In this document: positions 1,482 through 51,796 of the stretch, piece after piece
Layout: each line of letters begins with the position of its first letter
Position numbering within the stretch: the first letter of the stretch is position 1
Assembly: GCA_000004985.1 (NCBI GenBank)
Contig: GG738886.1
Direction: 5' to 3' (one strand)
Origin: Naegleria gruberi
Taxonomy: Eukaryota
Length of the DNA: 64,000 nt
Program-made: the position numbers and the translations under genes
The notes under the pieces: model-generated
Databases searched by the model: none
Told to the model about the DNA's origin: nothing
Seen by the model: only the letters and a program-made list of their open reading frames with translations

Positions 1482-1978
1482 ATGTTTAATCCATTCTTTA
1501 CACAACCTTCTGGTGGCGCCAATGTCAATCCATCCAATATGAATGGCTCAAGTCAATTCAATAATAGTGTTGCTGGTACGTATACTAGTTGTAGTAATAG
1601 CAGTGGGAGTACAATGCCAAACTTATTTTCAGACATGATTAATATGAATAGAAGAATGATGATGGGAGGATTTAGCATGCCAAGTGTGAATTTTGGTATG
1701 ACAGTGATGGGTCAATCGAGCACTACTAATATGACAAATAGTGGGATGCTTGGTGGAGGAATGAGTATGCCATCAAGTAAAACACATGAAATGTGTGACT
1801 TGTCTGGAAAGTGGCAAGACAAATCTGGTATGGTTTGGCACATTACTCAAAATGGAAATACGTTCCAAATGATTGAGGAAAGGAGTAATTTCACGGGAAA
1901 GGGTTCAGTTATTTCGAGCAATATTAATGGAACCGAATGGGTTATTCACGTGTCATTAACTGCCAGAACATTACAAGT
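1482..1978 (+). CDS. Hypothetical protein, 3' end lost in the assembly gap. The N-terminus is low-complexity (M/G/S/N-rich, repeated GGFSMP / GMTVMG motifs) and is followed by a beta-rich segment (CDLSGKWQDKSGMVWHITQNGNTFQMIEER...).
   Basis: Open frame from a true ATG at 1482 (the track start at 1461 is TTG) into the N run. Codon usage is typical of the locus. No family recognised. Confidence 0.4.
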
Positions 1979-4900
1979 NNNNNNNNNNNNNNNNNNNNNN
2001 NNNNNNNNNNNNNNNNNNNNNNNNNNNNNNNNNNNNNNNNNNNNNNNNNNNNNNNNNNNNNNNNNNNNNNNNNNNNNNNNNNNNNNNNNNNNNNNNNNNN
2101 NNNNNNNNNNNNNNNNNNNNNNNNNNNNNNNNNNNNNNNNNNNNNNNNNNNNNNNNNNNNNNNNNNNNNNNNNNNNNNNNNNNNNNNNNNNNNNNNNNNN
2201 NNNNNNNNNNNNNNNNNNNNNNNNNNNNNNNNNNNNNNNNNNNNNNNNNNNNNNNNNNNNNNNNNNNNNNNNNNNNNNNNNNNNNNNNNNNNNNNNNNNN
2301 NNNNNNNNNNNNNNNNNNNNNNNNNNNNNNNNNNNNNNNNNNNNNNNNNNNNNNNNNNNNNNNNNNNNNNNNNNNNNNNNNNNNNNNNNNNNNNNNNNNN
2401 NNNNNNNNNNNNNNNNNNNNNNNNNNNNNNNNNNNNNNNNNNNNNNNNNNNNNNNNNNNNNNNNNNNNNNNNNNNNNNNNNNNNNNNNNNNNNNNNNNNN
2501 NNNNNNNNNNNNNNNNNNNNNNNNNNNNNNNNNNNNNNNNNNNNNNNNNNNNNNNNNNNNNNNNNNNNNNNNNNNNNNNNNNNNNNNNNNNNNNNNNNNN
2601 NNNNNNNNNNNNNNNNNNNNNNNNNNNNNNNNNNNNNNNNNNNNNNNNNNNNNNNNNNNNNNNNNNNNNNNNNNNNNNNNNNNNNNNNNNNNNNNNNNNN
2701 NNNNNNNNNNNNNNNNNNNNNNNNNNNNNNNNNNNNNNNNNNNNNNNNNNNNNNNNNNNNNNNNNNNNNNNNNNNNNNNNNNNNNNNNNNNNNNNNNNNN
2801 NNNNNNNNNNNNNNNNNNNNNNNNNNNNNNNNNNNNNNNNNNNNNNNNNNNNNNNNNNNNNNNNNNNNNNNNNNNNNNNNNNNNNNNNNNNNNNNNNNNN
2901 NNNNNNNNNNNNNNNNNNNNNNNNNNNNNNNNNNNNNNNNNNNNNNNNNNNNNNNNNNNNNNNNNNNNNNNNNNNNNNNNNNNNNNNNNNNNNNNNNNNN
3001 NNNNNNNNNNNNNNNNNNNNNNNNNNNNNNNNNNNNNNNNNNNNNNNNNNNNNNNNNNNNNNNNNNNNNNNNNNNNNNNNNNNNNNNNNNNNNNNNNNNN
3101 NNNNNNNNNNNNNNNNNNNNNNNNNNNNNNNNNNNNNNNNNNNNNNNNNNNNNNNNNNNNNNNNNNNNNNNNNNNNNNNNNNNNNNNNNNNNNNNNNNNN
3201 NNNNNNNNNNNNNNNNNNNNNNNNNNNNNNNNNNNNNNNNNNNNNNNNNNNNNNNNNNNNNNNNNNNNNNNNNNNNNNNNNNNNNNNNNNNNNNNNNNNN
3301 NNNNNNNNNNNNNNNNNNNNNNNNNNNNNNNNNNNNNNNNNNNNNNNNNNNNNNNNNNNNNNNNNNNNNNNNNNNNNNNNNNNNNNNNNNNNNNNNNNNN
3401 NNNNNNNNNNNNNNNNNNNNNNNNNNNNNNNNNNNNNNNNNNNNNNNNNNNNNNNNNNNNNNNNNNNNNNNNNNNNNNNNNNNNNNNNNNNNNNNNNNNN
3501 NNNNNNNNNNNNNNNNNNNNNNNNNNNNNNNNNNNNNNNNNNNNNNNNNNNNNNNNNNNNNNNNNNNNNNNNNNNNNNNNNNNNNNNNNNNNNNNNNNNN
3601 NNNNNNNNNNNNNNNNNNNNNNNNNNNNNNNNNNNNNNNNNNNNNNNNNNNNNNNNNNNNNNNNNNNNNNNNNNNNNNNNNNNNNNNNNNNNNNNNNNNN
3701 NNNNNNNNNNNNNNNNNNNNNNNNNNNNNNNNNNNNNNNNNNNNNNNNNNNNNNNNNNNNNNNNNNNNNNNNNNNNNNNNNNNNNNNNNNNNNNNNNNNN
3801 NNNNNNNNNNNNNNNNNNNNNNNNNNNNNNNNNNNNNNNNNNNNNNNNNNNNNNNNNNNNNNNNNNNNNNNNNNNNNNNNNNNNNNNNNNNNNNNNNNNN
3901 NNNNNNNNNNNNNNNNNNNNNNNNNNNNNNNNNNNNNNNNNNNNNNNNNNNNNNNNNNNNNNNNNNNNNNNNNNNNNNNNNNNNNNNNNNNNNNNNNNNN
4001 NNNNNNNNNNNNNNNNNNNNNNNNNNNNNNNNNNNNNNNNNNNNNNNNNNNNNNNNNNNNNNNNNNNNNNNNNNNNNNNNNNNNNNNNNNNNNNNNNNNN
4101 NNNNNNNNNNNNNNNNNNNNNNNNNNNNNNNNNNNNNNNNNNNNNNNNNNNNNNNNNNNNNNNNNNNNNNNNNNNNNNNNNNNNNNNNNNNNNNNNNNNN
4201 NNNNNNNNNNNNNNNNNNNNNNNNNNNNNNNNNNNNNNNNNNNNNNNNNNNNNNNNNNNNNNNNNNNNNNNNNNNNNNNNNNNNNNNNNNNNNNNNNNNN
4301 NNNNNNNNNNNNNNNNNNNNNNNNNNNNNNNNNNNNNNNNNNNNNNNNNNNNNNNNNNNNNNNNNNNNNNNNNNNNNNNNNNNNNNNNNNNNNNNNNNNN
4401 NNNNNNNNNNNNNNNNNNNNNNNNNNNNNNNNNNNNNNNNNNNNNNNNNNNNNNNNNNNNNNNNNNNNNNNNNNNNNNNNNNNNNNNNNNNNNNNNNNNN
4501 NNNNNNNNNNNNNNNNNNNNNNNNNNNNNNNNNNNNNNNNNNNNNNNNNNNNNNNNNNNNNNNNNNNNNNNNNNNNNNNNNNNNNNNNNNNNNNNNNNNN
4601 NNNNNNNNNNNNNNNNNNNNNNNNNNNNNNNNNNNNNNNNNNNNNNNNNNNNNNNNNNNNNNNNNNNNNNNNNNNNNNNNNNNNNNNNNNNNNNNNNNNN
4701 NNNNNNNNNNNNNNNNNNNNNNNNNNNNNNNNNNNNNNNNNNNNNNNNNNNNNNNNNNNNNNNNNNNNNNNNNNNNNNNNNNNNNNNNNNNNNNNNNNNN
4801 NNNNNNNNNNNNNNNNNNNNNNNNNNNNNNNNNNNNNNNNNNNNNNNNNNNNNNNNNNNNNNNNNNNNNNNNNNNNNNNNNNNNNNNNNNNNNNNNNNNN

Positions 4901-7900
4901 NNNNNNNNNNNNNNNNNNNNNNNNNNNNNNNNNNNNNNNNNNNNNNNNNNNNNNNNNNNNNNNNNNNNNNNNNNNNNNNNNNNNNNNNNNNNNNNNNNNN
5001 NNNNNNNNNNNNNNNNNNNNNNNNNNNNNNNNNNNNNNNNNNNNNNNNNNNNNNNNNNNNNNNNNNNNNNNNNNNNNNNNNNNNNNNNNNNNNNNNNNNN
5101 NNNNNNNNNNNNNNNNNNNNNNNNNNNNNNNNNNNNNNNNNNNNNNNNNNNNNNNNNNNNNNNNNNNNNNNNNNNNNNNNNNNNNNNNNNNNNNNNNNNN
5201 NNNNNNNNNNNNNNNNNNNNNNNNNNNNNNNNNNNNNNNNNNNNNNNNNNNNNNNNNNNNNNNNNNNNNNNNNNNNNNNNNNNNNNNNNNNNNNNNNNNN
5301 NNNNNNNNNNNNNNNNNNNNNNNNNNNNNNNNNNNNNNNNNNNNNNNNNNNNNNNNNNNNNNNNNNNNNNNNNNNNNNNNNNNNNNNNNNNNNNNNNNNN
5401 NNNNNNNNNNNNNNNNNNNNNNNNNNNNNNNNNNNNNNNNNNNNNNNNNNNNNNNNNNNNNNNNNNNNNNNNNNNNNNNNNNNNNNNNNNNNNNNNNNNN
5501 NNNNNNNNNNNNNNNNNNNNNNNNNNNNNNNNNNNNNNNNNNNNNNNNNNNNNNNNNNNNNNNNNNNNNNNNNNNNNNNNNNNNNNNNNNNNNNNNNNNN
5601 NNNNNNNNNNNNNNNNNNNNNNNNNNNNNNNNNNNNNNNNNNNNNNNNNNNNNNNNNNNNNNNNNNNNNNNNNNNNNNNNNNNNNNNNNNNNNNNNNNNN
5701 NNNNNNNNNNNNNNNNNNNNNNNNNNNNNNNNNNNNNNNNNNNNNNNNNNNNNNNNNNNNNNNNNNNNNNNNNNNNNNNNNNNNNNNNNNNNNNNNNNNN
5801 NNNNNNNNNNNNNNNNNNNNNNNNNNNNNNNNNNNNNNNNNNNNNNNNNNNNNNNNNNNNNNNNNNNNNNNNNNNNNNNNNNNNNNNNNNNNNNNNNNNN
5901 NNNNNNNNNNNNNNNNNNNNNNNNNNNNNNNNNNNNNNNNNNNNNNNNNNNNNNNNNNNNNNNNNNNNNNNNNNNNNNNNNNNNNNNNNNNNNNNNNNNN
6001 NNNNNNNNNNNNNNNNNNNNNNNNNNNNNNNNNNNNNNNNNNNNNNNNNNNNNNNNNNNNNNNNNNNNNNNNNNNNNNNNNNNNNNNNNNNNNNNNNNNN
6101 NNNNNNNNNNNNNNNNNNNNNNNNNNNNNNNNNNNNNNNNNNNNNNNNNNNNNNNNNNNNNNNNNNNNNNNNNNNNNNNNNNNNNNNNNNNNNNNNNNNN
6201 NNNNNNNNNNNNNNNNNNNNNNNNNNNNNNNNNNNNNNNNNNNNNNNNNNNNNNNNNNNNNNNNNNNNNNNNNNNNNNNNNNNNNNNNNNNNNNNNNNNN
6301 NNNNNNNNNNNNNNNNNNNNNNNNNNNNNNNNNNNNNNNNNNNNNNNNNNNNNNNNNNNNNNNNNNNNNNNNNNNNNNNNNNNNNNNNNNNNNNNNNNNN
6401 NNNNNNNNNNNNNNNNNNNNNNNNNNNNNNNNNNNNNNNNNNNNNNNNNNNNNNNNNNNNNNNNNNNNNNNNNNNNNNNNNNNNNNNNNNNNNNNNNNNN
6501 NNNNNNNNNNNNNNNNNNNNNNNNNNNNNNNNNNNNNNNNNNNNNNNNNNNNNNNNNNNNNNNNNNNNNNNNNNNNNNNNNNNNNNNNNNNNNNNNNNNN
6601 NNNNNNNNNNNNNNNNNNNNNNNNNNNNNNNNNNNNNNNNNNNNNNNNNNNNNNNNNNNNNNNNNNNNNNNNNNNNNNNNNNNNNNNNNNNNNNNNNNNN
6701 NNNNNNNNNNNNNNNNNNNNNNNNNNNNNNNNNNNNNNNNNNNNNNNNNNNNNNNNNNNNNNNNNNNNNNNNNNNNNNNNNNNNNNNNNNNNNNNNNNNN
6801 NNNNNNNNNNNNNNNNNNNNNNNNNNNNNNNNNNNNNNNNNNNNNNNNNNNNNNNNNNNNNNNNNNNNNNNNNNNNNNNNNNNNNNNNNNNNNNNNNNNN
6901 NNNNNNNNNNNNNNNNNNNNNNNNNNNNNNNNNNNNNNNNNNNNNNNNNNNNNNNNNNNNNNNNNNNNNNNNNNNNNNNNNNNNNNNNNNNNNNNNNNNN
7001 NNNNNNNNNNNNNNNNNNNNNNNNNNNNNNNNNNNNNNNNNNNNNNNNNNNNNNNNNNNNNNNNNNNNNNNNNNNNNNNNNNNNNNNNNNNNNNNNNNNN
7101 NNNNNNNNNNNNNNNNNNNNNNNNNNNNNNNNNNNNNNNNNNNNNNNNNNNNNNNNNNNNNNNNNNNNNNNNNNNNNNNNNNNNNNNNNNNNNNNNNNNN
7201 NNNNNNNNNNNNNNNNNNNNNNNNNNNNNNNNNNNNNNNNNNNNNNNNNNNNNNNNNNNNNNNNNNNNNNNNNNNNNNNNNNNNNNNNNNNNNNNNNNNN
7301 NNNNNNNNNNNNNNNNNNNNNNNNNNNNNNNNNNNNNNNNNNNNNNNNNNNNNNNNNNNNNNNNNNNNNNNNNNNNNNNNNNNNNNNNNNNNNNNNNNNN
7401 NNNNNNNNNNNNNNNNNNNNNNNNNNNNNNNNNNNNNNNNNNNNNNNNNNNNNNNNNNNNNNNNNNNNNNNNNNNNNNNNNNNNNNNNNNNNNNNNNNNN
7501 NNNNNNNNNNNNNNNNNNNNNNNNNNNNNNNNNNNNNNNNNNNNNNNNNNNNNNNNNNNNNNNNNNNNNNNNNNNNNNNNNNNNNNNNNNNNNNNNNNNN
7601 NNNNNNNNNNNNNNNNNNNNNNNNNNNNNNNNNNNNNNNNNNNNNNNNNNNNNNNNNNNNNNNNNNNNNNNNNNNNNNNNNNNNNNNNNNNNNNNNNNNN
7701 NNNNNNNNNNNNNNNNNNNNNNNNNNNNNNNNNNNNNNNNNNNNNNNNNNNNNNNNNNNNNNNNNNNNNNNNNNNNNNNNNNNNNNNNNNNNNNNNNNNN
7801 NNNNNNNNNNNNNNNNNNNNNNNNNNNNNNNNNNNNNNNNNNNNNNNNNNNNNNNNNNNNNNNNNNNNNNNNNNNNNNNNNNNNNNNNNNNNNNNNNNNN

Positions 7901-10900
7901 NNNNNNNNNNNNNNNNNNNNNNNNNNNNNNNNNNNNNNNNNNNNNNNNNNNNNNNNNNNNNNNNNNNNNNNNNNNNNNNNNNNNNNNNNNNNNNNNNNNN
8001 NNNNNNNNNNNNNNNNNNNNNNNNNNNNNNNNNNNNNNNNNNNNNNNNNNNNNNNNNNNNNNNNNNNNNNNNNNNNNNNNNNNNNNNNNNNNNNNNNNNN
8101 NNNNNNNNNNNNNNNNNNNNNNNNNNNNNNNNNNNNNNNNNNNNNNNNNNNNNNNNNNNNNNNNNNNNNNNNNNNNNNNNNNNNNNNNNNNNNNNNNNNN
8201 NNNNNNNNNNNNNNNNNNNNNNNNNNNNNNNNNNNNNNNNNNNNNNNNNNNNNNNNNNNNNNNNNNNNNNNNNNNNNNNNNNNNNNNNNNNNNNNNNNNN
8301 NNNNNNNNNNNNNNNNNNNNNNNNNNNNNNNNNNNNNNNNNNNNNNNNNNNNNNNNNNNNNNNNNNNNNNNNNNNNNNNNNNNNNNNNNNNNNNNNNNNN
8401 NNNNNNNNNNNNNNNNNNNNNNNNNNNNNNNNNNNNNNNNNNNNNNNNNNNNNNNNNNNNNNNNNNNNNNNNNNNNNNNNNNNNNNNNNNNNNNNNNNNN
8501 NNNNNNNNNNNNNNNNNNNNNNNNNNNNNNNNNNNNNNNNNNNNNNNNNNNNNNNNNNNNNNNNNNNNNNNNNNNNNNNNNNNNNNNNNNNNNNNNNNNN
8601 NNNNNNNNNNNNNNNNNNNNNNNNNNNNNNNNNNNNNNNNNNNNNNNNNNNNNNNNNNNNNNNNNNNNNNNNNNNNNNNNNNNNNNNNNNNNNNNNNNNN
8701 NNNNNNNNNNNNNNNNNNNNNNNNNNNNNNNNNNNNNNNNNNNNNNNNNNNNNNNNNNNNNNNNNNNNNNNNNNNNNNNNNNNNNNNNNNNNNNNNNNNN
8801 NNNNNNNNNNNNNNNNNNNNNNNNNNNNNNNNNNNNNNNNNNNNNNNNNNNNNNNNNNNNNNNNNNNNNNNNNNNNNNNNNNNNNNNNNNNNNNNNNNNN
8901 NNNNNNNNNNNNNNNNNNNNNNNNNNNNNNNNNNNNNNNNNNNNNNNNNNNNNNNNNNNNNNNNNNNNNNNNNNNNNNNNNNNNNNNNNNNNNNNNNNNN
9001 NNNNNNNNNNNNNNNNNNNNNNNNNNNNNNNNNNNNNNNNNNNNNNNNNNNNNNNNNNNNNNNNNNNNNNNNNNNNNNNNNNNNNNNNNNNNNNNNNNNN
9101 NNNNNNNNNNNNNNNNNNNNNNNNNNNNNNNNNNNNNNNNNNNNNNNNNNNNNNNNNNNNNNNNNNNNNNNNNNNNNNNNNNNNNNNNNNNNNNNNNNNN
9201 NNNNNNNNNNNNNNNNNNNNNNNNNNNNNNNNNNNNNNNNNNNNNNNNNNNNNNNNNNNNNNNNNNNNNNNNNNNNNNNNNNNNNNNNNNNNNNNNNNNN
9301 NNNNNNNNNNNNNNNNNNNNNNNNNNNNNNNNNNNNNNNNNNNNNNNNNNNNNNNNNNNNNNNNNNNNNNNNNNNNNNNNNNNNNNNNNNNNNNNNNNNN
9401 NNNNNNNNNNNNNNNNNNNNNNNNNNNNNNNNNNNNNNNNNNNNNNNNNNNNNNNNNNNNNNNNNNNNNNNNNNNNNNNNNNNNNNNNNNNNNNNNNNNN
9501 NNNNNNNNNNNNNNNNNNNNNNNNNNNNNNNNNNNNNNNNNNNNNNNNNNNNNNNNNNNNNNNNNNNNNNNNNNNNNNNNNNNNNNNNNNNNNNNNNNNN
9601 NNNNNNNNNNNNNNNNNNNNNNNNNNNNNNNNNNNNNNNNNNNNNNNNNNNNNNNNNNNNNNNNNNNNNNNNNNNNNNNNNNNNNNNNNNNNNNNNNNNN
9701 NNNNNNNNNNNNNNNNNNNNNNNNNNNNNNNNNNNNNNNNNNNNNNNNNNNNNNNNNNNNNNNNNNNNNNNNNNNNNNNNNNNNNNNNNNNNNNNNNNNN
9801 NNNNNNNNNNNNNNNNNNNNNNNNNNNNNNNNNNNNNNNNNNNNNNNNNNNNNNNNNNNNNNNNNNNNNNNNNNNNNNNNNNNNNNNNNNNNNNNNNNNN
9901 NNNNNNNNNNNNNNNNNNNNNNNNNNNNNNNNNNNNNNNNNNNNNNNNNNNNNNNNNNNNNNNNNNNNNNNNNNNNNNNNNNNNNNNNNNNNNNNNNNNN
10001 NNNNNNNNNNNNNNNNNNNNNNNNNNNNNNNNNNNNNNNNNNNNNNNNNNNNNNNNNNNNNNNNNNNNNNNNNNNNNNNNNNNNNNNNNNNNNNNNNNNN
10101 NNNNNNNNNNNNNNNNNNNNNNNNNNNNNNNNNNNNNNNNNNNNNNNNNNNNNNNNNNNNNNNNNNNNNNNNNNNNNNNNNNNNNNNNNNNNNNNNNNNN
10201 NNNNNNNNNNNNNNNNNNNNNNNNNNNNNNNNNNNNNNNNNNNNNNNNNNNNNNNNNNNNNNNNNNNNNNNNNNNNNNNNNNNNNNNNNNNNNNNNNNNN
10301 NNNNNNNNNNNNNNNNNNNNNNNNNNNNNNNNNNNNNNNNNNNNNNNNNNNNNNNNNNNNNNNNNNNNNNNNNNNNNNNNNNNNNNNNNNNNNNNNNNNN
10401 NNNNNNNNNNNNNNNNNNNNNNNNNNNNNNNNNNNNNNNNNNNNNNNNNNNNNNNNNNNNNNNNNNNNNNNNNNNNNNNNNNNNNNNNNNNNNNNNNNNN
10501 NNNNNNNNNNNNNNNNNNNNNNNNNNNNNNNNNNNNNNNNNNNNNNNNNNNNNNNNNNNNNNNNNNNNNNNNNNNNNNNNNNNNNNNNNNNNNNNNNNNN
10601 NNNNNNNNNNNNNNNNNNNNNNNNNNNNNNNNNNNNNNNNNNNNNNNNNNNNNNNNNNNNNNNNNNNNNNNNNNNNNNNNNNNNNNNNNNNNNNNNNNNN
10701 NNNNNNNNNNNNNNNNNNNNNNNNNNNNNNNNNNNNNNNNNNNNNNNNNNNNNNNNNNNNNNNNNNNNNNNNNNNNNNNNNNNNNNNNNNNNNNNNNNNN
10801 NNNNNNNNNNNNNNNNNNNNNNNNNNNNNNNNNNNNNNNNNNNNNNNNNNNNNNNNNNNNNNNNNNNNNNNNNNNNNNNNNNNNNNNNNNNNNNNNNNNN

Positions 10901-13900
10901 NNNNNNNNNNNNNNNNNNNNNNNNNNNNNNNNNNNNNNNNNNNNNNNNNNNNNNNNNNNNNNNNNNNNNNNNNNNNNNNNNNNNNNNNNNNNNNNNNNNN
11001 NNNNNNNNNNNNNNNNNNNNNNNNNNNNNNNNNNNNNNNNNNNNNNNNNNNNNNNNNNNNNNNNNNNNNNNNNNNNNNNNNNNNNNNNNNNNNNNNNNNN
11101 NNNNNNNNNNNNNNNNNNNNNNNNNNNNNNNNNNNNNNNNNNNNNNNNNNNNNNNNNNNNNNNNNNNNNNNNNNNNNNNNNNNNNNNNNNNNNNNNNNNN
11201 NNNNNNNNNNNNNNNNNNNNNNNNNNNNNNNNNNNNNNNNNNNNNNNNNNNNNNNNNNNNNNNNNNNNNNNNNNNNNNNNNNNNNNNNNNNNNNNNNNNN
11301 NNNNNNNNNNNNNNNNNNNNNNNNNNNNNNNNNNNNNNNNNNNNNNNNNNNNNNNNNNNNNNNNNNNNNNNNNNNNNNNNNNNNNNNNNNNNNNNNNNNN
11401 NNNNNNNNNNNNNNNNNNNNNNNNNNNNNNNNNNNNNNNNNNNNNNNNNNNNNNNNNNNNNNNNNNNNNNNNNNNNNNNNNNNNNNNNNNNNNNNNNNNN
11501 NNNNNNNNNNNNNNNNNNNNNNNNNNNNNNNNNNNNNNNNNNNNNNNNNNNNNNNNNNNNNNNNNNNNNNNNNNNNNNNNNNNNNNNNNNNNNNNNNNNN
11601 NNNNNNNNNNNNNNNNNNNNNNNNNNNNNNNNNNNNNNNNNNNNNNNNNNNNNNNNNNNNNNNNNNNNNNNNNNNNNNNNNNNNNNNNNNNNNNNNNNNN
11701 NNNNNNNNNNNNNNNNNNNNNNNNNNNNNNNNNNNNNNNNNNNNNNNNNNNNNNNNNNNNNNNNNNNNNNNNNNNNNNNNNNNNNNNNNNNNNNNNNNNN
11801 NNNNNNNNNNNNNNNNNNNNNNNNNNNNNNNNNNNNNNNNNNNNNNNNNNNNNNNNNNNNNNNNNNNNNNNNNNNNNNNNNNNNNNNNNNNNNNNNNNNN
11901 NNNNNNNNNNNNNNNNNNNNNNNNNNNNNNNNNNNNNNNNNNNNNNNNNNNNNNNNNNNNNNNNNNNNNNNNNNNNNNNNNNNNNNNNNNNNNNNNNNNN
12001 NNNNNNNNNNNNNNNNNNNNNNNNNNNNNNNNNNNNNNNNNNNNNNNNNNNNNNNNNNNNNNNNNNNNNNNNNNNNNNNNNNNNNNNNNNNNNNNNNNNN
12101 NNNNNNNNNNNNNNNNNNNNNNNNNNNNNNNNNNNNNNNNNNNNNNNNNNNNNNNNNNNNNNNNNNNNNNNNNNNNNNNNNNNNNNNNNNNNNNNNNNNN
12201 NNNNNNNNNNNNNNNNNNNNNNNNNNNNNNNNNNNNNNNNNNNNNNNNNNNNNNNNNNNNNNNNNNNNNNNNNNNNNNNNNNNNNNNNNNNNNNNNNNNN
12301 NNNNNNNNNNNNNNNNNNNNNNNNNNNNNNNNNNNNNNNNNNNNNNNNNNNNNNNNNNNNNNNNNNNNNNNNNNNNNNNNNNNNNNNNNNNNNNNNNNNN
12401 NNNNNNNNNNNNNNNNNNNNNNNNNNNNNNNNNNNNNNNNNNNNNNNNNNNNNNNNNNNNNNNNNNNNNNNNNNNNNNNNNNNNNNNNNNNNNNNNNNNN
12501 NNNNNNNNNNNNNNNNNNNNNNNNNNNNNNNNNNNNNNNNNNNNNNNNNNNNNNNNNNNNNNNNNNNNNNNNNNNNNNNNNNNNNNNNNNNNNNNNNNNN
12601 NNNNNNNNNNNNNNNNNNNNNNNNNNNNNNNNNNNNNNNNNNNNNNNNNNNNNNNNNNNNNNNNNNNNNNNNNNNNNNNNNNNNNNNNNNNNNNNNNNNN
12701 NNNNNNNNNNNNNNNNNNNNNNNNNNNNNNNNNNNNNNNNNNNNNNNNNNNNNNNNNNNNNNNNNNNNNNNNNNNNNNNNNNNNNNNNNNNNNNNNNNNN
12801 NNNNNNNNNNNNNNNNNNNNNNNNNNNNNNNNNNNNNNNNNNNNNNNNNNNNNNNNNNNNNNNNNNNNNNNNNNNNNNNNNNNNNNNNNNNNNNNNNNNN
12901 NNNNNNNNNNNNNNNNNNNNNNNNNNNNNNNNNNNNNNNNNNNNNNNNNNNNNNNNNNNNNNNNNNNNNNNNNNNNNNNNNNNNNNNNNNNNNNNNNNNN
13001 NNNNNNNNNNNNNNNNNNNNNNNNNNNNNNNNNNNNNNNNNNNNNNNNNNNNNNNNNNNNNNNNNNNNNNNNNNNNNNNNNNNNNNNNNNNNNNNNNNNN
13101 NNNNNNNNNNNNNNNNNNNNNNNNNNNNNNNNNNNNNNNNNNNNNNNNNNNNNNNNNNNNNNNNNNNNNNNNNNNNNNNNNNNNNNNNNNNNNNNNNNNN
13201 NNNNNNNNNNNNNNNNNNNNNNNNNNNNNNNNNNNNNNNNNNNNNNNNNNNNNNNNNNNNNNNNNNNNNNNNNNNNNNNNNNNNNNNNNNNNNNNNNNNN
13301 NNNNNNNNNNNNNNNNNNNNNNNNNNNNNNNNNNNNNNNNNNNNNNNNNNNNNNNNNNNNNNNNNNNNNNNNNNNNNNNNNNNNNNNNNNNNNNNNNNNN
13401 NNNNNNNNNNNNNNNNNNNNNNNNNNNNNNNNNNNNNNNNNNNNNNNNNNNNNNNNNNNNNNNNNNNNNNNNNNNNNNNNNNNNNNNNNNNNNNNNNNNN
13501 NNNNNNNNNNNNNNNNNNNNNNNNNNNNNNNNNNNNNNNNNNNNNNNNNNNNNNNNNNNNNNNNNNNNNNNNNNNNNNNNNNNNNNNNNNNNNNNNNNNN
13601 NNNNNNNNNNNNNNNNNNNNNNNNNNNNNNNNNNNNNNNNNNNNNNNNNNNNNNNNNNNNNNNNNNNNNNNNNNNNNNNNNNNNNNNNNNNNNNNNNNNN
13701 NNNNNNNNNNNNNNNNNNNNNNNNNNNNNNNNNNNNNNNNNNNNNNNNNNNNNNNNNNNNNNNNNNNNNNNNNNNNNNNNNNNNNNNNNNNNNNNNNNNN
13801 NNNNNNNNNNNNNNNNNNNNNNNNNNNNNNNNNNNNNNNNNNNNNNNNNNNNNNNNNNNNNNNNNNNNNNNNNNNNNNNNNNNNNNNNNNNNNNNNNNNN

Positions 13901-15500
13901 NNNNNNNNNNNNNNNNNNNNNNNNNNNNNNNNNNNNNNNNNNNNNNNNNNNNNNNNNNNNNNNNNNNNNNNNNNNNNNNNNNNNNNNNNNNNNNNNNNNN
14001 NNNNNNNNNNNNNNNNNNNNNNNNNNNNNNNNNNNNNNNNNNNNNNNNNNNNNNNNNNNNNNNNNNNNNNNNNNNNNNNNNNNNNNNNNNNNNNNNNNNN
14101 NNNNNNNNNNNNNNNNNNNNNNNNNNNNNNNNNNNNNNNNNNNNNNNNNNNNNNNNNNNNNNNNNNNNNNNNNNNNNNNNNNNNNNNNNNNNNNNNNNNN
14201 NNNNNNNNNNNNNNNNNNNNNNNNNNNNNNNNNNNNNNNNNNNNNNNNNNNNNNNNNNNNNNNNNNNNNNNNNNNNNNNNNNNNNNNNNNNNNNNNNNNN
14301 NNNNNNNNNNNNNNNNNNNNNNNNNNNNNNNNNNNNNNNNNNNNNNNNNNNNNNNNNNNNNNNNNNNNNNNNNNNNNNNNNNNNNNNNNNNNNNNNNNNN
14401 NNNNNNNNNNNNNNNNNNNNNNNNNNNNNNNNNNNNNNNNNNNNNNNNNNNNNNNNNNNNNNNNNNNNNNNNNNNNNNNNNNNNNNNNNNNNNNNNNNNN
14501 NNNNNNNNNNNNNNNNNNNNNNNNNNNNNNNNNNNNNNNNNNNNNNNNNNNNNNNNNNNNNNNNNNNNNNNNNNNNNNNNNNNNNNNNNNNNNNNNNNNN
14601 NNNNNNNNNNNNNNNNNNNNNNNNNNNNNNNNNNNNNNNNNNNNNNNNNNNNNNNNNNNNNNNNNNNNNNNNNNNNNNNNNNNNNNNNNNNNNNNNNNNN
14701 NNNNNNNNNNNNNNNNNNNNNNNNNNNNNNNNNNNNNNNNNNNNNNNNNNNNNNNNNNNNNNNNNNNNNNNNNNNNNNNNNNNNNNNNNNNNNNNNNNNN
14801 NNNNNNNNNNNNNNNNNNNNNNNNNNNNNNNNNNNNNNNNNNNNNNNNNNNNNNNNNNNNNNNNNNNNNNNNNNNNNNNNNNNNNNNNNNNNNNNNNNNN
14901 NNNNNNNNNNNNNNNNNNNNNNNNNNNNNNNNNNNNNNNNNNNNNNNNNNNNNNNNNNNNNNNNNNNNNNNNNNNNNNNNNNNNNNNNNNNNNNNNNNNN
15001 NNNNNNNNNNNNNNNNNNNNNNNNNNNNNNNNNNNNNNNNNNNNNNNNNNNNNNNNNNNNNNNNNNNNNNNNNNNNNNNNNNNNNNNNNNNNNNNNNNNN
15101 NNNNNNNNNNNNNNNNNNNNNNNNNNNNNNNNNNNNNNNNNNNNNNNNNNNNNNNNNNNNNNNNNNNNNNNNNNNNNNNNNNNNNNNNNNNNNNNNNNNN
15201 NNNNNNNNNNNNNNNNNNNNNNNNNNNNNNNNNNNNNNNNNNNNNNNNNNNNNNNNNNNNNNNNNNNNNNNNNNNNNNNNNNNNNNNNNNNNNNNNNNNN
15301 NNNNNNNNNNNNNNNNNNNNNNNNNNNNNNNNNNNNNNNNNNNNNNNNNNNNNNNNNNNNNNNNNNNNNNNNNNNNNNNNNNNNNNNNNNNNNNNNNNNN
15401 NNNNNNNNNNNNNNNNNNNNNNNNNNNNNNNNNNNNNNNNNNNNNNNNNNNNNNNNNNNNNNNNNNNNNNNNNNNNNNNNNNNNNNNNNNNNNNNNNNNN
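1979..15500. other. Assembly gap: 13,522 consecutive N
   Basis: Uninterrupted run of n. The three giant 'ORFs' spanning it in the track are X-translation artifacts. Confidence 0.99.
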
Positions 15501-17211
15501 AAATTTTTTAGATCTATTTAAACTTGATTTTGTAAAAATATAATGATCTATTAATGGCATTATTAAAACACTTGTTAAATTTAAAATTATAATAAAAATT
15601 AAAATTCCATAACAAGTATCACTTTCCATATATATAAAATACTTTCCAATAAAATCAAAATAAATAATATTTAAATCATCTTGTGCAATATCATCATGTT
15701 TTAATTTTGTAATCATGTGAAATAATTGTAAATGTAAATTTTCACCTAAATGTTGAATTGAACCTGAATTTTTACCATTTAAGGAAATTGAATTATTAAT
15801 ATTTGAATTAAAAAAATAATTTGAATGATCATATTGTGAACCTAATACATAGGAATCATAAACAAACATTAAATCCATTCCATTATGAATTTCTTTTGAT
15901 AAAACATTAAAATCTGTTAAAAAATTTGTTTCCTGATTTGATTTTTGACTTTTGATTAAAAACCAAATTAATTCTTCAATTATTACATTGGCATATGGAA
16001 ATGGAACTTTAGAATATTCTTTAAATAATTTCATTGATTTAGTTTTTGATTGAACAAGTGTTGATTTTCCACTTCCACCTAAAGATGAAAGATTTATAAA
16101 TCTTTTAATTCTTCCTAATATCATTGCTATTAATGTATTTGGTTTACTATATTTAGATATAAAATCACTAGCTCCACTTGAATCTAATTCTGCTCCATTA
16201 GTAAATAAAAATGCAAGTTGATGTGTCATTTCATTCATTGAATGATTGGAAAATAAATTTTTAAAATTGGATATTAATTCTAATGAAAGTATTGTTCCAA
16301 TCATGTTATTAGAAAATCCAGGTGAATTTTCAACTGTATCAATCTATTATAAATTAGAATTTTAAAAGAGTAGTTAAAATTGTATGAGAATATTTTGTGA
16401 GAATATTTGTAAAAATTGTTTAAAATTATTTAAAATTATTGTAAACATACATGTGTTGATAATAAAACAGATGTTGTATTTTGATTATCACAAGTATTTT
16501 CATCACATAAAATTACTAAAAGATTATCAATTTTTTGAACAGGTTCTAAAAATGGTGATTTGATTATTTTCATTTTCAATTTTGAATTTGTTTCAACATC
16601 TTTTTTCATATTTAATAATTTCCTAATTAAAATTTGAACAAATTGAACATTTTTCCCACTTCCAAATTCTCTAGATTCCTCATTTCCATTTATAAACTCT
16701 TTCCAATTTTGTAAAGCTCTTGTTTCTGAAAATTTTGATAAATTTTCCAAATTATTATCCAAAGGAAGTGAATCTGATGAAAATGAAATTGGTATTACAA
16801 TTAAAAAGAATATAAATGGTATTAAAATTGCATAACTAATAAATAAACAAATATTCGAAGGAAAGAATGAAAAACAAAATTTTTTGATATTTTCCCTTTT
16901 TGATGATTTTAAAGCCTTTTTTCGATGAGATGATGATTAGAAGAATTTGATAAATTATTTGAATGATCACTTCCAAATCCTTCATTATGATGATATTCAT
17001 TGTCATCCTGTGTTATCGGAGATGTTGGTGTAAATGACATGTTGAAGGCTAAATGATGATTATTTCCTTCCTGTCTATTTCTATTATTATTATTGATCAA
17101 TAAGTGTTGTTGATGATGTCTACTATTCGGAGGTGATGTTAAGAGTAATTCACCATCTTCATCACCAGAGAGATTAATACTCTCTTCTGCTGATTGTTGA
17201 TAGTAAAACAT
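15501..17211 (-). CDS. Hypothetical membrane protein. It has an ATG-initiated His/Asn/Gln-rich N-terminal segment (16909..17211), a hydrophobic anchor (NICLFISYAILIPFIFFLIVIPISF) and a C-terminal domain carrying the P-loop-like motif LGGSGKSTLV. There is a 107-nt intron at 16344..16450 (gtatgt...taatag). The last exon (15501..16343) runs into the gap.
   Basis: Segment 16451..16936 has no ATG and is in a different frame from 16909..17211; the two overlap at a T6/A6 homopolymer (16917-16922). Splice frames are consistent (...LLSTH | IDTVENSPGF...). The Walker-A GxxxxGKST motif is seen directly. Confidence 0.45.
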
Positions 17212-24450: not shown

Positions 24451-25413
24451 ATGCACTCTATTCAAGCTTTAAAGTTGAACAAACTTAATCTCGATCCTGC
24501 AATTTCTACATCCAACGATGACTCAGATTCGAATAAGAAGAAATATATCAAGTTCTCTGATAGATTTGGAACCACAGAACCTTTCTACAAATTCATGGTC
24601 ACAAAATTCGAGTTGGTACACAACCACCTCTTAAACTTTTGTCCAGTCATTCTCATGGTTTTGGTGCATAACGACCTTCTGTCACCATTCTGGGCAGTAT
24701 TAATTCAACAATACTTGACAATTATATGGACACTTTCTCTGCATTCCCTTCTCCATGCCAAGACATGTGTCGATTCCAATCAAAACTATGATTTGTTTAC
24801 TGACATTCTTATTGGAATTCCATACTTTGGTTTATTCACTCCTTCCATTGCTAAATTTGGTCACGACACACATCACAATTACACAGGAACTGAAAAGGAT
24901 TTGGATCACTTCTTCTTCAAGACTGAAAATCCAATTCTCCTCTTTATTTATTCCTCATTCTTTTCTGAATATTACATTTTCTGCTATTTATGGGAGAAAT
25001 CTTCAGAAAAGATGCAAATTTTAAGAAGTGTTTCAATCATGCTCGTTAAATTGGTGATTTTATTGACAATGTACAAGATTTTGGGTAATTCCTTCTTGAT
25101 TATCTTTTTGAGTTCAAGATTTGCAAAGAGTTACATTTTTGCTTCCTTTACTCAACTTGTCCACAAGATTGATTTGGAATCAATTTTATTCGATTTGGAA
25201 GAAAGATTGAATTTGCCAATTACTATTGATACTATTTTGCATTACACTTTCGGATACAATATTCATGTAGTCAAGTATCATGATGATCATCATGCTTACA
25301 GAATGATTTGTCCATCTGCTTACTATCCAGCTCTTCATAATTATTATAAGAAACATCAAGTGAACGAAAATAATAATAGAATTGAAAGTCCTGGAAGAAA
25401 TAAAGCAATATAA
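24451..25413 (+). CDS. Membrane di-iron oxidase of the fatty-acid hydroxylase superfamily (ERG25/SUR2/sterol-desaturase-like)
   Basis: 320 aa with multiple hydrophobic segments and three His boxes (HSLLH, HDTHH, HDDHH) in the spacing typical of this superfamily. Confidence 0.7.
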   Translation: MHSIQALKLNKLNLDPAISTSNDDSDSNKKKYIKFSDRFGTTEPFYKFMVTKFELVHNHLLNFCPVILMVLVHNDLLSPFWAVLIQQYLTIIWTLSLHSLLHAKTCVDSNQNYDLFTDILIGIPYFGLFTPSIAKFGHDTHHNYTGTEKDLDHFFFKTENPILLFIYSSFFSEYYIFCYLWEKSSEKMQILRSVSIMLVKLVILLTMYKILGNSFLIIFLSSRFAKSYIFASFTQLVHKIDLESILFDLEERLNLPITIDTILHYTFGYNIHVVKYHDDHHAYRMICPSAYYPALHNYYKKHQVNENNNRIESPGRNKAI

Positions 25414-25618: not shown

Positions 25619-25738
25619 GGCTACGGCCATATCACGATGAATGCACCTCATCCCGTCCGATTTGAGAAGTTAAGCATCGTCGAGCCACATCAGTACTGAG
25701 GTTGGAGACAACTTGGGAACCTGTGGTGCTGTAGTCTT
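25619..25738 (+). rRNA. 5S ribosomal RNA, dispersed single copy
   Basis: GGCTACGGCCATATCACGATGAATGCACCTCATCCCGTCCGATTTGAGAAGTTAAGCATCGTCGAGCCACATCAGTACTGAGGTTGGAGACAACTTGGGAACCTGTGGTGCTGTAGTCTTT aligns along its full length with eukaryotic 5S rRNA. The 5' and 3' ends pair. It is followed by a T-rich Pol III terminator. Confidence 0.9.
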
Positions 25739-25889: not shown

Positions 25890-26300
25890 TTATTTACGCT
25901 TGTAGATGTCAACTTTCTTATTCTTCTTTCCACCTCTTCTATTCTTTCTATTCTTTCTATTCTTCTTTCTATAAGTATCAATTCTTCTCTTCTTATTCAA
26001 TCTTCTCTTCTTTCCATATACATCAATCTTCTTTCTGATAACTCTCTTCTTTCCAAATCTCTTCCATCCTCTTCTCTTTCTTCCATAAGTGTCAATGTAC
26101 TTGTTGAGCTTTCTATTGTTCTTTCTCTTCTTGTGTCTGAATCTCTTGAGATTTCTCTTCTTGTTATTATTCTTTCTAATGTACAAGGAAAGTGTTGAGG
26201 CAGCAGTTGTTGATTCTTCTGCAGAAACTCCTGAAGTGAAGGAAAGTGCAAGAATTGCCAATGACAAGGCAATCAATAAGATTGAAACGAATCTTTTCAT
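25890..26300 (-). CDS. Secreted, extremely basic tandem-repeat protein. A signal peptide (MKRFVSILLIALSLAILALSFTSGVSA) is followed by at least four repeats with the core [IV]D[TVI]Y flanked by K/R runs (KYIDTYGRKRRG, KKIDVYGKKRR, RRIDTYRKKNR, KKVDIYKRK).
   Basis: 136-aa ORF from a true ATG at 26300. On the + strand the region is a 300-nt polypyrimidine (CT-rich) tract with internal repeats. Dibasic KR/RR sites flank every core. Confidence 0.6.
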   Translation of the reverse strand: MKRFVSILLIALSLAILALSFTSGVSAEESTTAASTLSLYIRKNNNKKRNLKRFRHKKRKNNRKLNKYIDTYGRKRRGWKRFGKKRVIRKKIDVYGKKRRLNKKRRIDTYRKKNRKNRKNRRGGKKNKKVDIYKRK

Positions 26301-26773
26301 TTTTTGTTTTTTTGATTGTGTTCAAGAAGTGAAACATATCCCAGTATTTAAAGATATGAAAAGAATAGTATGTTGATTTTTTTGGTATAGAAGATGAATG
26401 ATTTTCCAAAAAGAGAGTGGCCACAGATTTTGGACATTGTTCATTTGGTCTTTGTTAATCCATGCGGATTATTGAACAAGAACAGATGGAAAGAACTTCA
26501 ATGGTTGGATTGTGCATAAAGATGTGGAATATCTTGGAATGCAAAAAATTCCAATGTTTGAAGGACTGTAAAGAAATACGGCTGGTTACAAAAAAGTCCA
26601 TTTAATTTACAAATCTCTATTCAAAGATTGGTATAAGTGATCAAAGAAACAATAAAGAGTATTGAGAAGAATTTCTGGTACCTTGAAAATATTGAAATTC
26701 ATCTGATACAGTATTCTTGATATTAATTGTGCTGGTATTCGCTTGGAACATTAAAAGCAAAAGTAAAAGGAAA

Positions 26774-26856
26774 TGCCAGCGGTGGGGTTCGAACCCACGA
26801 ACCCATTCGGGATAAGATCTTAAGTCTTACGCATTTGACCACTCTGCTACGCGGGC
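26774..26856 (-). tRNA. tRNA-Leu (anticodon UAA), type II long variable arm; copy 1 of 3
   Basis: Cloverleaf seen directly. Acceptor GCCCGCG/CGCTGGC has one C:U mismatch. D-arm GCA-GAGTGGTCAAA-TGC. Anticodon stem TAAGA/TCTTA with loop CTTAAGA. Variable hairpin CCC-GAAT-GGG. T-arm GTGGG-TTCGAAC-CCCAC. A-box TAGCAGAGTGG and B-box GGTTCGAACCC are present. A 3' T-run follows. Confidence 0.9.
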
Positions 26857-26917
26857 TGGTATTCATTAAGCTTTTGTATATCTTAAATATGCATTTACTT
26901 GTAACACTTTGATTCAT

Positions 26918-28072
26918 TTAATAGACTTTTATTTCCGCCATTACCTTCTTGTCAATAGATGCATCCTCAATCATTACTTCCTCACTCATCAATAATCCAA
27001 ATAATAGAGGGAATTGAATGTAACATCTGGCATCAGTTTTGCAACTTAGCTCAAAATATTGAACTTTCAAATCTTTCAATGAAATACCACCATCAATAAT
27101 GGGTACAAACTGTTGGAGGAGATTTTCAATTCGACTCATTTTCACCTTTCTTACTAAATCTCTCTTCAATCCAATAATTATCATACTTGACCTTTCACAT
27201 TGTAAATAATCATTCCAAGGAGTATTTTGAGGTTTTTCACTATTATTGTCAATAAGTTCCTTCATTCGATCAAAAGACTCTTCATCACTCAAATCAAAGC
27301 AATAAATGATTGTCTTGGAACCTCTTTTATAGGCTGATGCAATTGATTGAAACCTTGCATGTCCACCAGTATCCCATAATTGAATTTTGCAATGTAAATT
27401 ATTATTATACTCATAACCTTTTGAATAAAACTCAACTCCAATGGTTTGAGAATATTTTGAATCAAATAATCTTGTTGAATCTGAAAATAATTTAGCAAGT
27501 TCAGATTTACCACATTGATCGTTTCCCATTAAAACTTGTTTACAAATCATAGAGTTGGGTACATCTGATTTTTCTTTGTATGAACTTAAAATAGTTTGTA
27601 TAAAGTGATGATAATATACAATACTATTGATTGGTGATTGCATAATTGGTTTAAAATACATGAAAATCTCATTGTAATCATCCAACAATCTTCCTCTCCA
27701 TAAAAAACTATTTTGAGTCCAATAATATTTGAAATTTTTGGAAACTCGTTGTAATTTGAAAAGTTCATGATTCATTAAAAATCCCAAAATACAAATAAAT
27801 AATTCATCAGGTAATTCCTTTTCAAAAATTGAACAATTTTCATAATTATAGACTGCATATTTCTCAACACTCTTCAGATCACTTTTTGATTCGATTAAAT
27901 CATGAAAAATCTTGTTTGGAAACATTTTAGGATTTGCTAATTTGTTGATGAGAGATGATTTTTTAAGTTGTTCAACACGATCCGAATTAATGAAAGCCAT
28001 TGAAGATGATGATGTAGATGAGGAGCAAACAGGTGGCGGTGGTGCAATTTTCTGAGGTTGTGATTGACCCAT
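26918..28072 (-). CDS. F-box + Rab-like small GTPase domain protein, copy A (384 aa). The catalytic Gln is replaced by His.
   Basis: F-box LPDELFICILGFLMNHELFKLQRVSKNF. GTPase motifs: G1 GNDQCGKSEL; switch-I TIGVEF; G3 WDTGGHARF (Rab WDTAGQERF); G4 GLKRDL (degenerate NKxD); G5 SCK. True ATG at 28072. Confidence 0.8.
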   Translation of the reverse strand: MGQSQPQKIAPPPPVCSSSTSSSSMAFINSDRVEQLKKSSLINKLANPKMFPNKIFHDLIESKSDLKSVEKYAVYNYENCSIFEKELPDELFICILGFLMNHELFKLQRVSKNFKYYWTQNSFLWRGRLLDDYNEIFMYFKPIMQSPINSIVYYHHFIQTILSSYKEKSDVPNSMICKQVLMGNDQCGKSELAKLFSDSTRLFDSKYSQTIGVEFYSKGYEYNNNLHCKIQLWDTGGHARFQSIASAYKRGSKTIIYCFDLSDEESFDRMKELIDNNSEKPQNTPWNDYLQCERSSMIIIGLKRDLVRKVKMSRIENLLQQFVPIIDGGISLKDLKVQYFELSCKTDARCYIQFPLLFGLLMSEEVMIEDASIDKKVMAEIKVY

Positions 28073-28134
28073 TTTTTTATCTTTGGAAATTAATTTGTCA
28101 ATTGTTAGATGGAACTTAATATATTAATTCTGGT
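28073..28134 (-). promoter_or_regulatory. Conserved about 60-nt upstream block shared by both F-box/Rab copies
   Basis: Near-identical to 50383..50446 (accagaattaatat[a/t]tt.aagttccat.ctaacaat..acaaattaatttccaaagataaaaaaatg). Confidence 0.4.
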
Positions 28135-43635: not shown

Positions 43636-44188
43636 TTTTTTTCTTCAAGTATCATTTTGAAATTGCACCATCTTCATCACACCTCTTCGGAACGAATAAT
43701 AACAATAATAAATAAATAAAATTCATCATCAAATAATAATCATGATGAAGAATTTAAAAAGAGAATGCCATGCAACCCTCGCCAGTAGTCTGAATTGTGT
43801 TACAGCCCAGTGAGCTGTGTTGTACATCTAACTAAACTTTTGCGGTGTCATCCCAGCCGTTTCAATTGAGAGTTTCCTCCCAAGCCCATTTCTGGTTCTG
43901 GGATATTAGCATTATTGATTTACCAACCTCACTTCTCGTGAGTAAACAACACCTCAGACCTTCCCAGGAGTTATGGTTAATGTGAGTGTTCTTACTTGTT
44001 TAAAGTAATCTCGTATGTATTCTCCTCAATACGTCCAAGCTCAAGATGCAAGCAGACCCCGAAGATTAAATGTAATTTGCATCCTTGTGAAAGATTGGAT
44101 ATTTTTTAGGAGGTAAGATTTATGGTTTCAAAAAAGAGTTTTCTATATTTTACATAATTCAATTTCACTCAACTATTATTCAAGTTAA

Positions 44189-50232: not shown

Positions 50233-50315
50233 GCCCGCGTAGCAGAGTGGTCAAATGCGTAAGACTTAAGATCTTATCCCGAATGGGTTCGTGGGTTCGA
50301 ACCCCACCGCTGGCA
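50233..50315 (+). tRNA. tRNA-Leu (UAA), copy 2
   Basis: Identical 83-nt sequence to copy 1, followed by TTTCCTTTT. Confidence 0.9.
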
Positions 50316-50446
50316 TTTCCTTTTACCTTTGACAGAAAGAAATGGAACTTGAGACTTAATGTATCTTATATGATGTCTATTGACCAGAATTAATATTTTA
50401 AAGTTCCATTCTAACAATTTACAAATTAATTTCCAAAGATAAAAAA

Positions 50447-51595: not shown

Positions 51596-51604
51596 TGAGC
51601 ACCA

Positions 51605-51687
51605 GCCCGCGTAGCAGAGTGGTCAAATGCGTAAGACTTAAGATCTTATCCCGAATGGGTTCGTGGGTTCGAACCCCACCGCTGGCA
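51605..51687 (+). tRNA. tRNA-Leu (UAA), copy 3
   Basis: Identical to copies 1 and 2. It starts 9 nt after the stop of F-box/Rab copy B. It shares about 37 nt of 3' flank with copy 2 (tttcctttt.c.tttg.cagaaagaaatggaacttga). Confidence 0.9.
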
Positions 51688-51796
51688 TTTCCTTTTTCTT
51701 TGCCAGAAAGAAATGGAACTTGATCGAATATATTGCTAAATAATTGCTTTTATATTCAATTTTTGAAATGCAAGTGTGAAAATCCATTCCAAAAAA

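Follow-up and report, generated by a model that had tools for sequence, protein, structure and literature searches.

A small gene missed by the Naegleria gruberi annotation appears to encode a secreted hyper-basic protein of an orphan family

In the precursors of cationic host-defence peptides, such as the arminins of Hydra and the cathelicidin-type proteins, a signal peptide precedes a short anionic piece, and the C-terminal part is cationic. The silaffins of diatoms, which are Ser/Lys-rich, heavily phosphorylated and polyamine-modified, serve in silica deposition, and animal pro-TRH, with its KR-QHPG-KR units, belongs with the FMRFamide precursors to the multi-copy precursors of amidated peptides. 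In fungi, the Kex2-processed repeat precursors (KEPs) are operationally defined by at least three repeats of at least eight residues between KR, KK, RK or RR sites (PMC7329392). Here we analysed a stretch of 64,000 nucleotides (nt) of Naegleria gruberi (GenBank assembly GCA_000004985.1, contig GG738886.1), hereafter the window, and in it an open reading frame (ORF) of 136 codons on the minus strand, for which an original prediction from the letters of the DNA had proposed a secreted hyper-basic repeat protein; the location given for it proved exact. We conclude with high confidence that the ORF is a genuine gene for a protein of the secretory pathway and that it belongs to an orphan family. 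We put at about even (roughly 0.5) the combined claim that the gene is real and that its product is a secreted, disordered polycation acting on polyanionic targets; taken by itself, the polycation or defence mechanism is a tentative proposal, somewhat below even odds.

The coding sequence (CDS) and the parts of its product lie as follows.

25890-26300, minus strand: complete single-exon CDS of 136 codons plus the stop TAA, with the ATG at 26298-26300 and the TAA at 25890-25892
26220-26300, minus strand: predicted signal peptide, residues 1-27, MKRFVSILLIALSLAILALSFTSGVSA, read in the sequence from the n/h/c regions and the -3/-1 rule
26178-26219, minus strand: acidic to neutral, Ser/Thr-rich spacer, residues 28-41, EESTTAASTLSLYI, from the family alignment
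25893-26177, minus strand: hyper-basic region, residues 42-136, which holds all four cores, from composition
26085-26096, minus strand: core 1, IDTY, residues 69-72, in the context NKY-IDTY-G-RKRR
26016-26027, minus strand: core 2, IDVY, residues 92-95, in the context RKK-IDVY-G-KKRR
25971-25982, minus strand: core 3, IDTY, residues 107-110, in the context KRR-IDTY-RKK
25902-25913, minus strand: core 4, VDIY, residues 130-133, in the context NKK-VDIY-KRK-stop

The signal peptide consists of the n-region MKR, an 18-residue hydrophobic core, FVSILLIALSLAILALSF, and the stretch TSGVSA with small residues at positions -3 and -1, and its cleavage is predicted after residue 27 (VSA/EE). Both this peptide and the spacer behind it had been part of the original prediction and can be read in the sequence. 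The full product is MKRFVSILLIALSLAILALSFTSGVSA / EESTTAASTLSLYI / RKNNNKKRNLKRFRHKKRKNNRKLNKY-IDTY-GRKRRGWKRFGKKRVIRKK-IDVY-GKKRRLNKKRR-IDTY-RKKNRKNRKNRRGGKKNKK-VDIY-KRK, followed by the stop. The predicted mature chain has 109 residues, including 51 Lys or Arg (47%) and six Asp or Glu, with a net charge of +45, an isoelectric point (pI) of 11.9 and a mass of ~13.6 kDa, and it contains no N-glycosylation sequon. In the hyper-basic region, 51 of the 95 residues are Lys or Arg, with 12 Asn in addition and no Ser.

The four cores are spaced 23, 15 and 23 residues apart. Core 3 is the best-conserved one and occurs as RRIDTYGKK in divergent homologues; core 4 stands three residues before the C-terminus, a position kept in all complete family members. 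The RKRR after core 1 is the sole furin-type R-x-[KR]-R site of the 136-residue protein. A dibasic pair, alone or behind a Gly ([KR][KR] or G-[KR][KR]), directly follows each of the four cores, and a dibasic pair directly precedes three of them. The claim of dibasic sites on both sides of every core thus holds downstream but fails upstream at core 1, where N-K-Y stands, and the Gly that had been noted after three cores is found after two in this copy (cores 1 and 2). Where at least four tandem repeats had been announced, four [IV]D.Y cores are present, but they do not make a regular tandem repeat: the spacing is uneven, and Tandem Repeats Finder reported no such repeat in the DNA, the one exception being a micro-repeat of three 9-nt units, (RKN)3, at 25937-25964. 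Likewise, the supposed 300-nt polypyrimidine tract is a skew and not a pure tract. The plus strand over the basic part is 77% pyrimidine across 291 nt, the most strand-skewed stretch of the window, and its longest pure run measures 18 nt.

For comparison of the DNA, we used three environmental loci, namely L002, a 2.3-kb contig with the orthologue of the N. gruberi predicted protein P0001, and L001 and L003, which represent a divergent species. In the window and in all three loci, the coding frame alone among the six is free of stops, the others carrying 3-16 stops; all indels among the homologous loci preserve the frame, and the stop follows the same VD.YK.K motif. The ratio of nonsynonymous to synonymous divergence (dN/dS) is 0.25 between the window and L002 and 0.42-0.56 against the divergent L001 and L003 (0.45 against L001). 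A stop-free CDS was obtained in none of 20,000 shuffles. When the basic region was shuffled by composition 200,000 times, four [ILVFM]D.Y motifs were never reached and three were reached once, and dibasic pairs on both sides of at least three cores appeared in ~1% of the shuffles that kept the cores as blocks. The codon AAG is used for 27 of the 30 Lys residues, versus 45% in 17 neighbouring ORFs. These comparisons show purifying selection on the reading frame, on the signal peptide and the [IVLF]D.Y motifs, and on the point at which the C-terminus ends.

The original prediction had itself named the contrary case, a chance ORF in a CT-rich spacer, here one between a 5S rRNA gene and a tRNA-Leu gene. 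Such an ORF would suit the strongest strand skew of the window and the scarcity of stop codons on purine-rich strands; a second frame of this strand stays open over 91 codons, and the genome annotators did not call a gene here. It is at odds with a frame that is the sole one open at four loci and that never survived shuffling, with a dN/dS below 1 and frame-preserving indels, with a conserved signal peptide that lies upstream of the skewed part, and with five paralogues that were called genes. We rejected the chance ORF on the shuffles, the frame conservation and the dN/dS, and we regard a non-functional stretch of any kind, including an element acting at the DNA or RNA level and tied to the 5S gene, as very improbable.

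The conservation is unevenly distributed along the protein. Across members that are ~46-57% identical overall, 13 of the 33 invariant family columns fall in the signal peptide. In the divergent homologues, the signal peptide, STLS.YI, KYI, RRIDTYGKK and the terminal KKVD.YK.K-stop are kept; the linkers vary in length and sequence and retain their K/R/N/G composition, even where L001 and L003 have lost two cores. The number of cores among the members ranges from 2 to 5, and ~60% of the distinct cores have a Gly after the Tyr. Between the window and L002, the basic part (25893-26177 versus 1292-1579) shows 95% nt identity with a dS of 0.16 and a dN of 0.027, versus 75% nt identity with a dS of 0.61 and a dN of 0.22 for the signal peptide and spacer and 61-69% for the flanks. 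The low dS of the basic part points to gene conversion limited to the low-complexity part or, alternatively, a constraint on synonymous sites or codons. Between L001 and L003, we counted ~14 nonsynonymous changes and 1 synonymous change, mostly in the C-terminal linker, which are too few to call positive selection.

In N. gruberi, homologues were found in NAEGRDRAFT_71365 (D2VQW0), 68008 (D2VGK2), 71069 (D2VQ94), 68479 (D2VHX6) and 50395 (D2VKU9), the last with homology in its N-terminal ~133 residues. BLASTP gave 71-86% identity to these homologues, with the best match at E=4e-58 and 83% identity; the E values of the predicted proteins P0001-P0004 run from 4e-58 to 2e-28, P0005 from the ENA is 46% identical, and family membership is supported by values of 4e-58 to 1e-10 at 100% coverage. 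Common to the family are the signal peptide, the STLS.YI spacer, the phi-D-x-Y cores and the C-terminal VD.YK.K-stop (VD.YKRK in N. gruberi). An exhaustive search of 1.84 billion representatives with a profile hidden Markov model added NAEGRDRAFT_50395 (P0007) alone. No further relatives were obtained by a second, word-indexed search with a broadened alignment, by a peptide-pattern scan of the JGI metagenomes, or by the exact DNA pattern of the signal-peptide codons. Profile searches against Pfam and PDB gave no matches, and no homologue was detected among the predicted proteins of N. fowleri, so far leaving N. gruberi and three seemingly Naegleria-like environmental ENA contigs as the only places where the family has been seen. 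The family was known before as uncharacterised predicted proteins, and this applies to every N. gruberi homologue; the copy in the window is new, and the family has no homology to described ones.

No record of the exact 136-residue product was found, and the paralogues lie on other scaffolds; hence, the locus is an unannotated one. The window gene is the sixth paralogue, missed by the annotation of N. gruberi NEG-M, and the family comprises at least six loci on six scaffolds. The other gene models have faults of their own. NAEGRDRAFT_50395 (P0007) joins a family member with five cores to a NOT2/3/5 C-terminal-domain protein, and in NAEGRDRAFT_68479 (P0004) a wrong, unrelated N-terminus replaces the signal peptide; thus, among the six loci, one is unannotated, one is fused and one begins wrongly. 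The ENA models P0005 and P0009, at L001 and L003, read through the true TAG stop after VD[FL]YKKK, which at L001 stands directly after VDFYKKK. The reference annotation of N. gruberi therefore misses or mis-models small, low-complexity secreted proteins, and with such faulty or missing models, inventories of the Naegleria secretome are likely incomplete. The outcome for this locus is a real feature and a useful correction of the annotation.

In kind, the gene varies a familiar theme, that of secreted cationic peptides or of repeat precursors processed at dibasic sites, and nothing in it contradicts expectation. As a secreted polycation, the product would be led into the endoplasmic reticulum by its signal peptide and cut after Ala27. 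The conserved acidic EE just past the cleavage site may provide a charge difference, N-positive and C-negative, which would orient the signal and start the translocation of the cationic chain. The resulting polycation of ~13.6 kDa and ~+45, with no predicted fold, could be partially clipped in the Golgi at some of its ~10 KR/RR sites into cationic peptides of 9-14 residues, most of which would contain or end in phi-D-x-Y. Whole or clipped, it would bind electrostatically to extracellular or phagosomal polyanions. For a bacterivore, we deem the envelope of prey or competitor bacteria the most plausible target, which would make the product a host-defence or prey-handling cationic peptide, and the conserved phi-D-x-Y(G) may be a site of specific contact or modification. 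The partial cleavage at dibasic sites is probable because a kexin homologue exists in the genus: N. fowleri possesses an S08B kexin/furin homologue (g4438) and M14B carboxypeptidase E/M-like homologues (g3584 and g3206) (PMC8296547 Table S11). In its protease complement, N. gruberi is stated to resemble N. fowleri broadly (PMC8296547).

The secreted polycation is supported by the basic part being the best-conserved part among the N. gruberi paralogues, as its dN of 0.027 indicates. AlphaFold2, run with the family alignment, returned generic helices at a mean predicted local distance difference test (pLDDT) of 61 and a predicted template modelling score (pTM) of 0.23, too poor for a fold search, and the protein is thus modelled as having no stable fold. 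Compared with helical cationic antimicrobial peptides, the chain has the net positive charge (+45, pI 11.9) and lacks the amphipathic segregation. Its maximal helical hydrophobic moment over 18 residues is 0.56, a value reached by 43% of the composition shuffles; hence, there is no evidence of the amphipathic design that is typical of such peptides, and this is the first of several points that weigh against the proposal. The kexin in question is a putative enzyme of N. fowleri, assigned by homology alone. Gene conversion, and not constraint, could be the reason why the basic part is so well conserved among paralogues. A pure polycation function leaves the phi-D-x-Y cores, the best-conserved elements of the divergent homologues, unexplained. 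Finally, the family identifiers are absent from the full texts and supplements that were searched, though trypsin shreds such proteins. Two numeric matches to family identifiers in supplements were rejected as coincidences.

The closest likeness of a secreted polycation of this kind is to the arminin and cathelicidin-type precursors, with which the three-part layout is shared, and to protamine-like polycations, all with very high charge, and the ecology fits a bacterivore. However, there is no homology to any of these, the charge density is far higher here (47% K/R), the amphipathic design is missing, and the Naegleria protein carries conserved phi-D-x-Y motifs. In the case of the diatom silaffin precursor Sil1p, the signal peptide, the acidic piece and the Lys/Arg-rich units parted by RR-type sites are similar, and both are secreted polycations, but the Naegleria protein has no Ser in its basic part. 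To our knowledge, Naegleria makes no silica. The fallback of the original prediction, a cationic antimicrobial or DNA-binding secreted protein, comes close to what we hold most likely. Should the product prove to be a secreted polycationic effector, Naegleria would have in it a protist peptide of a new sequence class, used in host defence or prey handling; the genus includes the brain-eating N. fowleri.

The original prediction had favoured a resemblance to dikaritin-type precursors (ustiloxin/phomopsin-like), which are peptides made by the ribosome and modified after translation; their Tyr cores are cut out by Kex2 and closed into macrocycles by a DUF3328/UstYa oxidase. The superficial format alone agrees with this, that is, a signal peptide and recurring short Tyr cores beside KR/RR. 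However, the host is a heterolobosean amoeba and not a fungus, let alone one of the Dikarya; the cores are irregularly spaced and set in polybasic linkers; and the protein has no homology to any Pfam family. Pfam searches of all ORFs of at least 150 residues in the 64-kb window gave no match to DUF3328/UstYa, tyrosinase, subtilase or copper monooxygenase, and no methyltransferase-type tailoring gene is among them, so the nearby oxidase or tyrosinase that had been proposed as a check was not found there. The neighbours are housekeeping genes, including importin-11-like, PCI-domain, Fe-S assembly, Rax2-like, NSUN2-like, D123, G-alpha and succinyl-CoA ligase beta proteins, and others. In fungi, a DUF3328 gene accompanies 22% of KEPs and is then on average ~3 genes away (PMC7329392).

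The protein also falls outside the published definition of KEPs. Its predicted signal peptide conforms by inspection to the n/h/c regions and the -3/-1 rule, but the segments between dibasic sites that bear the cores are 9 (LNKYIDTYG), 5, 4 and 4 residues long, and a length of at least eight is otherwise reached only by a 14-residue spacer that is not a repeat. Owing to the non-fungal host, the lack of a tailoring gene in 64 kb and this departure from the KEP repeats, the dikaritin idea is unsupported and we give it next to no credence. Of the broader suggestion of a Kex2-processed repeat precursor, the Tyr motifs among dibasic sites remain, whereas the repeats fall short of the KEP definition and the linkers are nearly pure K/R/N. 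Compared with the fungal KEPs, including UstA, the Naegleria protein shares a signal peptide, here a predicted one, the recurring short cores beside KR/KK/RK/RR and a kexin homologue in the genus; it differs in the absence of homology, the non-fungal host, the lack of a DNA tandem repeat, the polybasic linkers and the absence of a DUF3328 or tyrosinase neighbour.

Apart from any fungal pathway, a kexin-like convertase and a carboxypeptidase might excise short phi-D-x-Y(Gly) signals for density, differentiation or chemotaxis from a multi-copy precursor, as in KEPs, pro-TRH and the FMRFamide precursors. Cleavage at KR/RR only, with carboxypeptidase trimming, is predicted to yield KNNRKLNKYIDTYG, VIRKKIDVYG, IDTYRKKNRKNRKN and GGKKNKKVDIY, and cleavage at every dibasic pair bare tetra- or pentapeptides. 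In agreement with this, it is the cores and the residues directly beside them that divergent members conserve best within the basic region, their linkers being variable, and a range of 2-5 cores is what multi-copy precursors show. All cores are followed by G-[KR][KR] or [KR][KR] and three of the four are preceded by a dibasic pair, an arrangement found in ~1% of shuffles; Gly follows the Tyr in a majority of distinct cores; and homologues of both the convertase and the carboxypeptidase exist in the genus. Against it stands the hyper-basic composition of the linkers, which is itself conserved even where L001 and L003 have lost cores; among the N. gruberi paralogues, no other part is as well conserved as the linkers. 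Moreover, the published KEP definition does not cover the protein, and no receptor or phenotype is on record. We consider such a precursor possible, though unlikely. Neither a polycation nor a precursor function alone explains the conservation of both the cores and the polybasic composition.

Among the precursors of amidated peptides, those of pro-TRH and FMRFamide, and also those on record from Chlamydomonas (PMC6919629, PMC6313938), resemble the protein in the order dibasic-core-Gly-dibasic at cores 1 and 2 and in the IDTY-G-KK of divergent members. A core-Gly-dibasic motif is present at 2 of the 4 cores here (IDTY-G-RKRR and IDVY-G-KKRR), at 3 of 4 in P0003 and at 3 of 5 in P0007. In contrast, two of the four cores here lack the Gly, and polybasic spacers stand in the place of neutral or acidic ones. 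The excavates, among other ciliated groups, are stated to lack the amidating enzyme PAM, with Trypanosoma as the example and Naegleria unnamed (PMC6529398), and we found no literature report of PAM in Naegleria. With PAM reported absent from excavates, amidation at Y-G-dibasic would lack its enzyme, if the group as a whole is without it. Any phi-D-x-Y peptides so released would possibly be modified C-terminally at Tyr-Gly. That Naegleria employs precursors in the style of pro-TRH or FMRFamide, with secreted phi-D-x-Y signals for density sensing, encystment or the amoeba-to-flagellate differentiation, is in our view improbable. A peptide precursor, if true, would extend convertase-based peptide signalling to Discoba, where peptidergic signalling would then run on an unusual polybasic scaffold.

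Tyr-rich precursors of the coccidian oocyst wall and the Lys/DOPA (3,4-dihydroxyphenylalanine) adhesive proteins of mussels are parallels for cross-linking, and the Naegleria protein would be comparable to them in principle. As a structural or adhesive extracellular protein, the polycation would bind acidic polysaccharides of a wall or matrix, or surfaces, and its Tyr residues would be cross-linked by dityrosine or DOPA, for example in the cyst wall. Every core and the spacer (SLYI, KYI) contain an invariant Tyr, and the protein is secretory, disordered, of low complexity and multi-copy, as wall and matrix proteins often are. However, Tyr makes up 6 of the 109 mature residues, far under the content of known cross-linked wall and adhesive proteins, and neither a peroxidase nor a tyrosinase was found nearby among the window ORFs screened above. 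We see in this a long shot at best and return to the secreted polycation as the preferred account of the protein.

A duplicated unit of ~700 bp, from 26522 to 25820, is common to the window and L002 and extends ~220 nt upstream and ~70 nt downstream of the CDS. Its flanking features and the adjacent RNA genes are the following.

26301-26522, minus strand: 5' flank with ~69% identity to L002, including a conserved block at 26426-26452
26346-26354, minus strand: TATA-like TCTTTAAAT, 46-54 nt upstream of the ATG, conserved in L002
25820-25889, minus strand: 3' flank common to L002, in which the homology stops shortly after the AATAAA
25828-25833, minus strand: AATAAA, 57-62 nt after the stop
25619-25737, plus strand: solitary, full-length 5S rRNA gene (Rfam, 105 bits)
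26774-26856, minus strand: tRNA-Leu(UAA), outside the duplicated unit

The 5' flank presumably comprises the promoter and the 5' untranslated region, and the 3' flank presumably the 3' untranslated region and the poly(A) signal. A 40-codon ORF upstream (26322-26444, minus strand) was rejected, as L002 does not keep it and has a stop after 4 codons. The 5S gene is convergent with the hyper-basic gene and lies 152 nt from its stop codon, close to the ~150 nt noted originally, and ~90 nt from the AATAAA. Because the duplicated unit ends at 25820 and excludes the 5S gene, and because L002 has no RNA gene in its 2.3 kb by Rfam, neither 5S nor tRNA, the adjacency is incidental. A functional link to the 5S gene was accordingly rejected, the unit excluding both the 5S gene and tRNA-Leu and the adjacency not being kept at L002; this also speaks against the 5S-tied element considered above.

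Several other features of the window were noted. An assembly gap of 13,522 N occupies 1979-15500, and three overlapping ORFs of 4,500-4,800 residues at 1461-16304, on both strands, were discarded as artefacts of this N-run. Upstream of the 5S gene, a 320-residue ORF (24451-25413, plus strand) has no Pfam match and encodes a hydrophobic protein with the histidine-box-like motifs HDTHHN and HDDHH, which are reminiscent, by their letters, of membrane desaturases or hydroxylases. An inverted duplication with 98% identity (26758-28134 versus 50383-51701) carries a Rab-family GTPase with an N-terminal F-box and the downstream tRNA-Leu(UAA); the hyper-basic gene lies outside the duplicated segment. 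The two Rab/F-box duplicates, 23 kb apart, are 100% identical to the annotated proteins EFC41360.1 and EFC41291.1, which identifies the window as part of the strain NEG-M reference, and a third tRNA-Leu(UAA) with an identical score is located at 50233-50315. The gene for the nuclear RNase P RNA (RF00009, 66.8 bits) lies at 43778-44039 on the minus strand.

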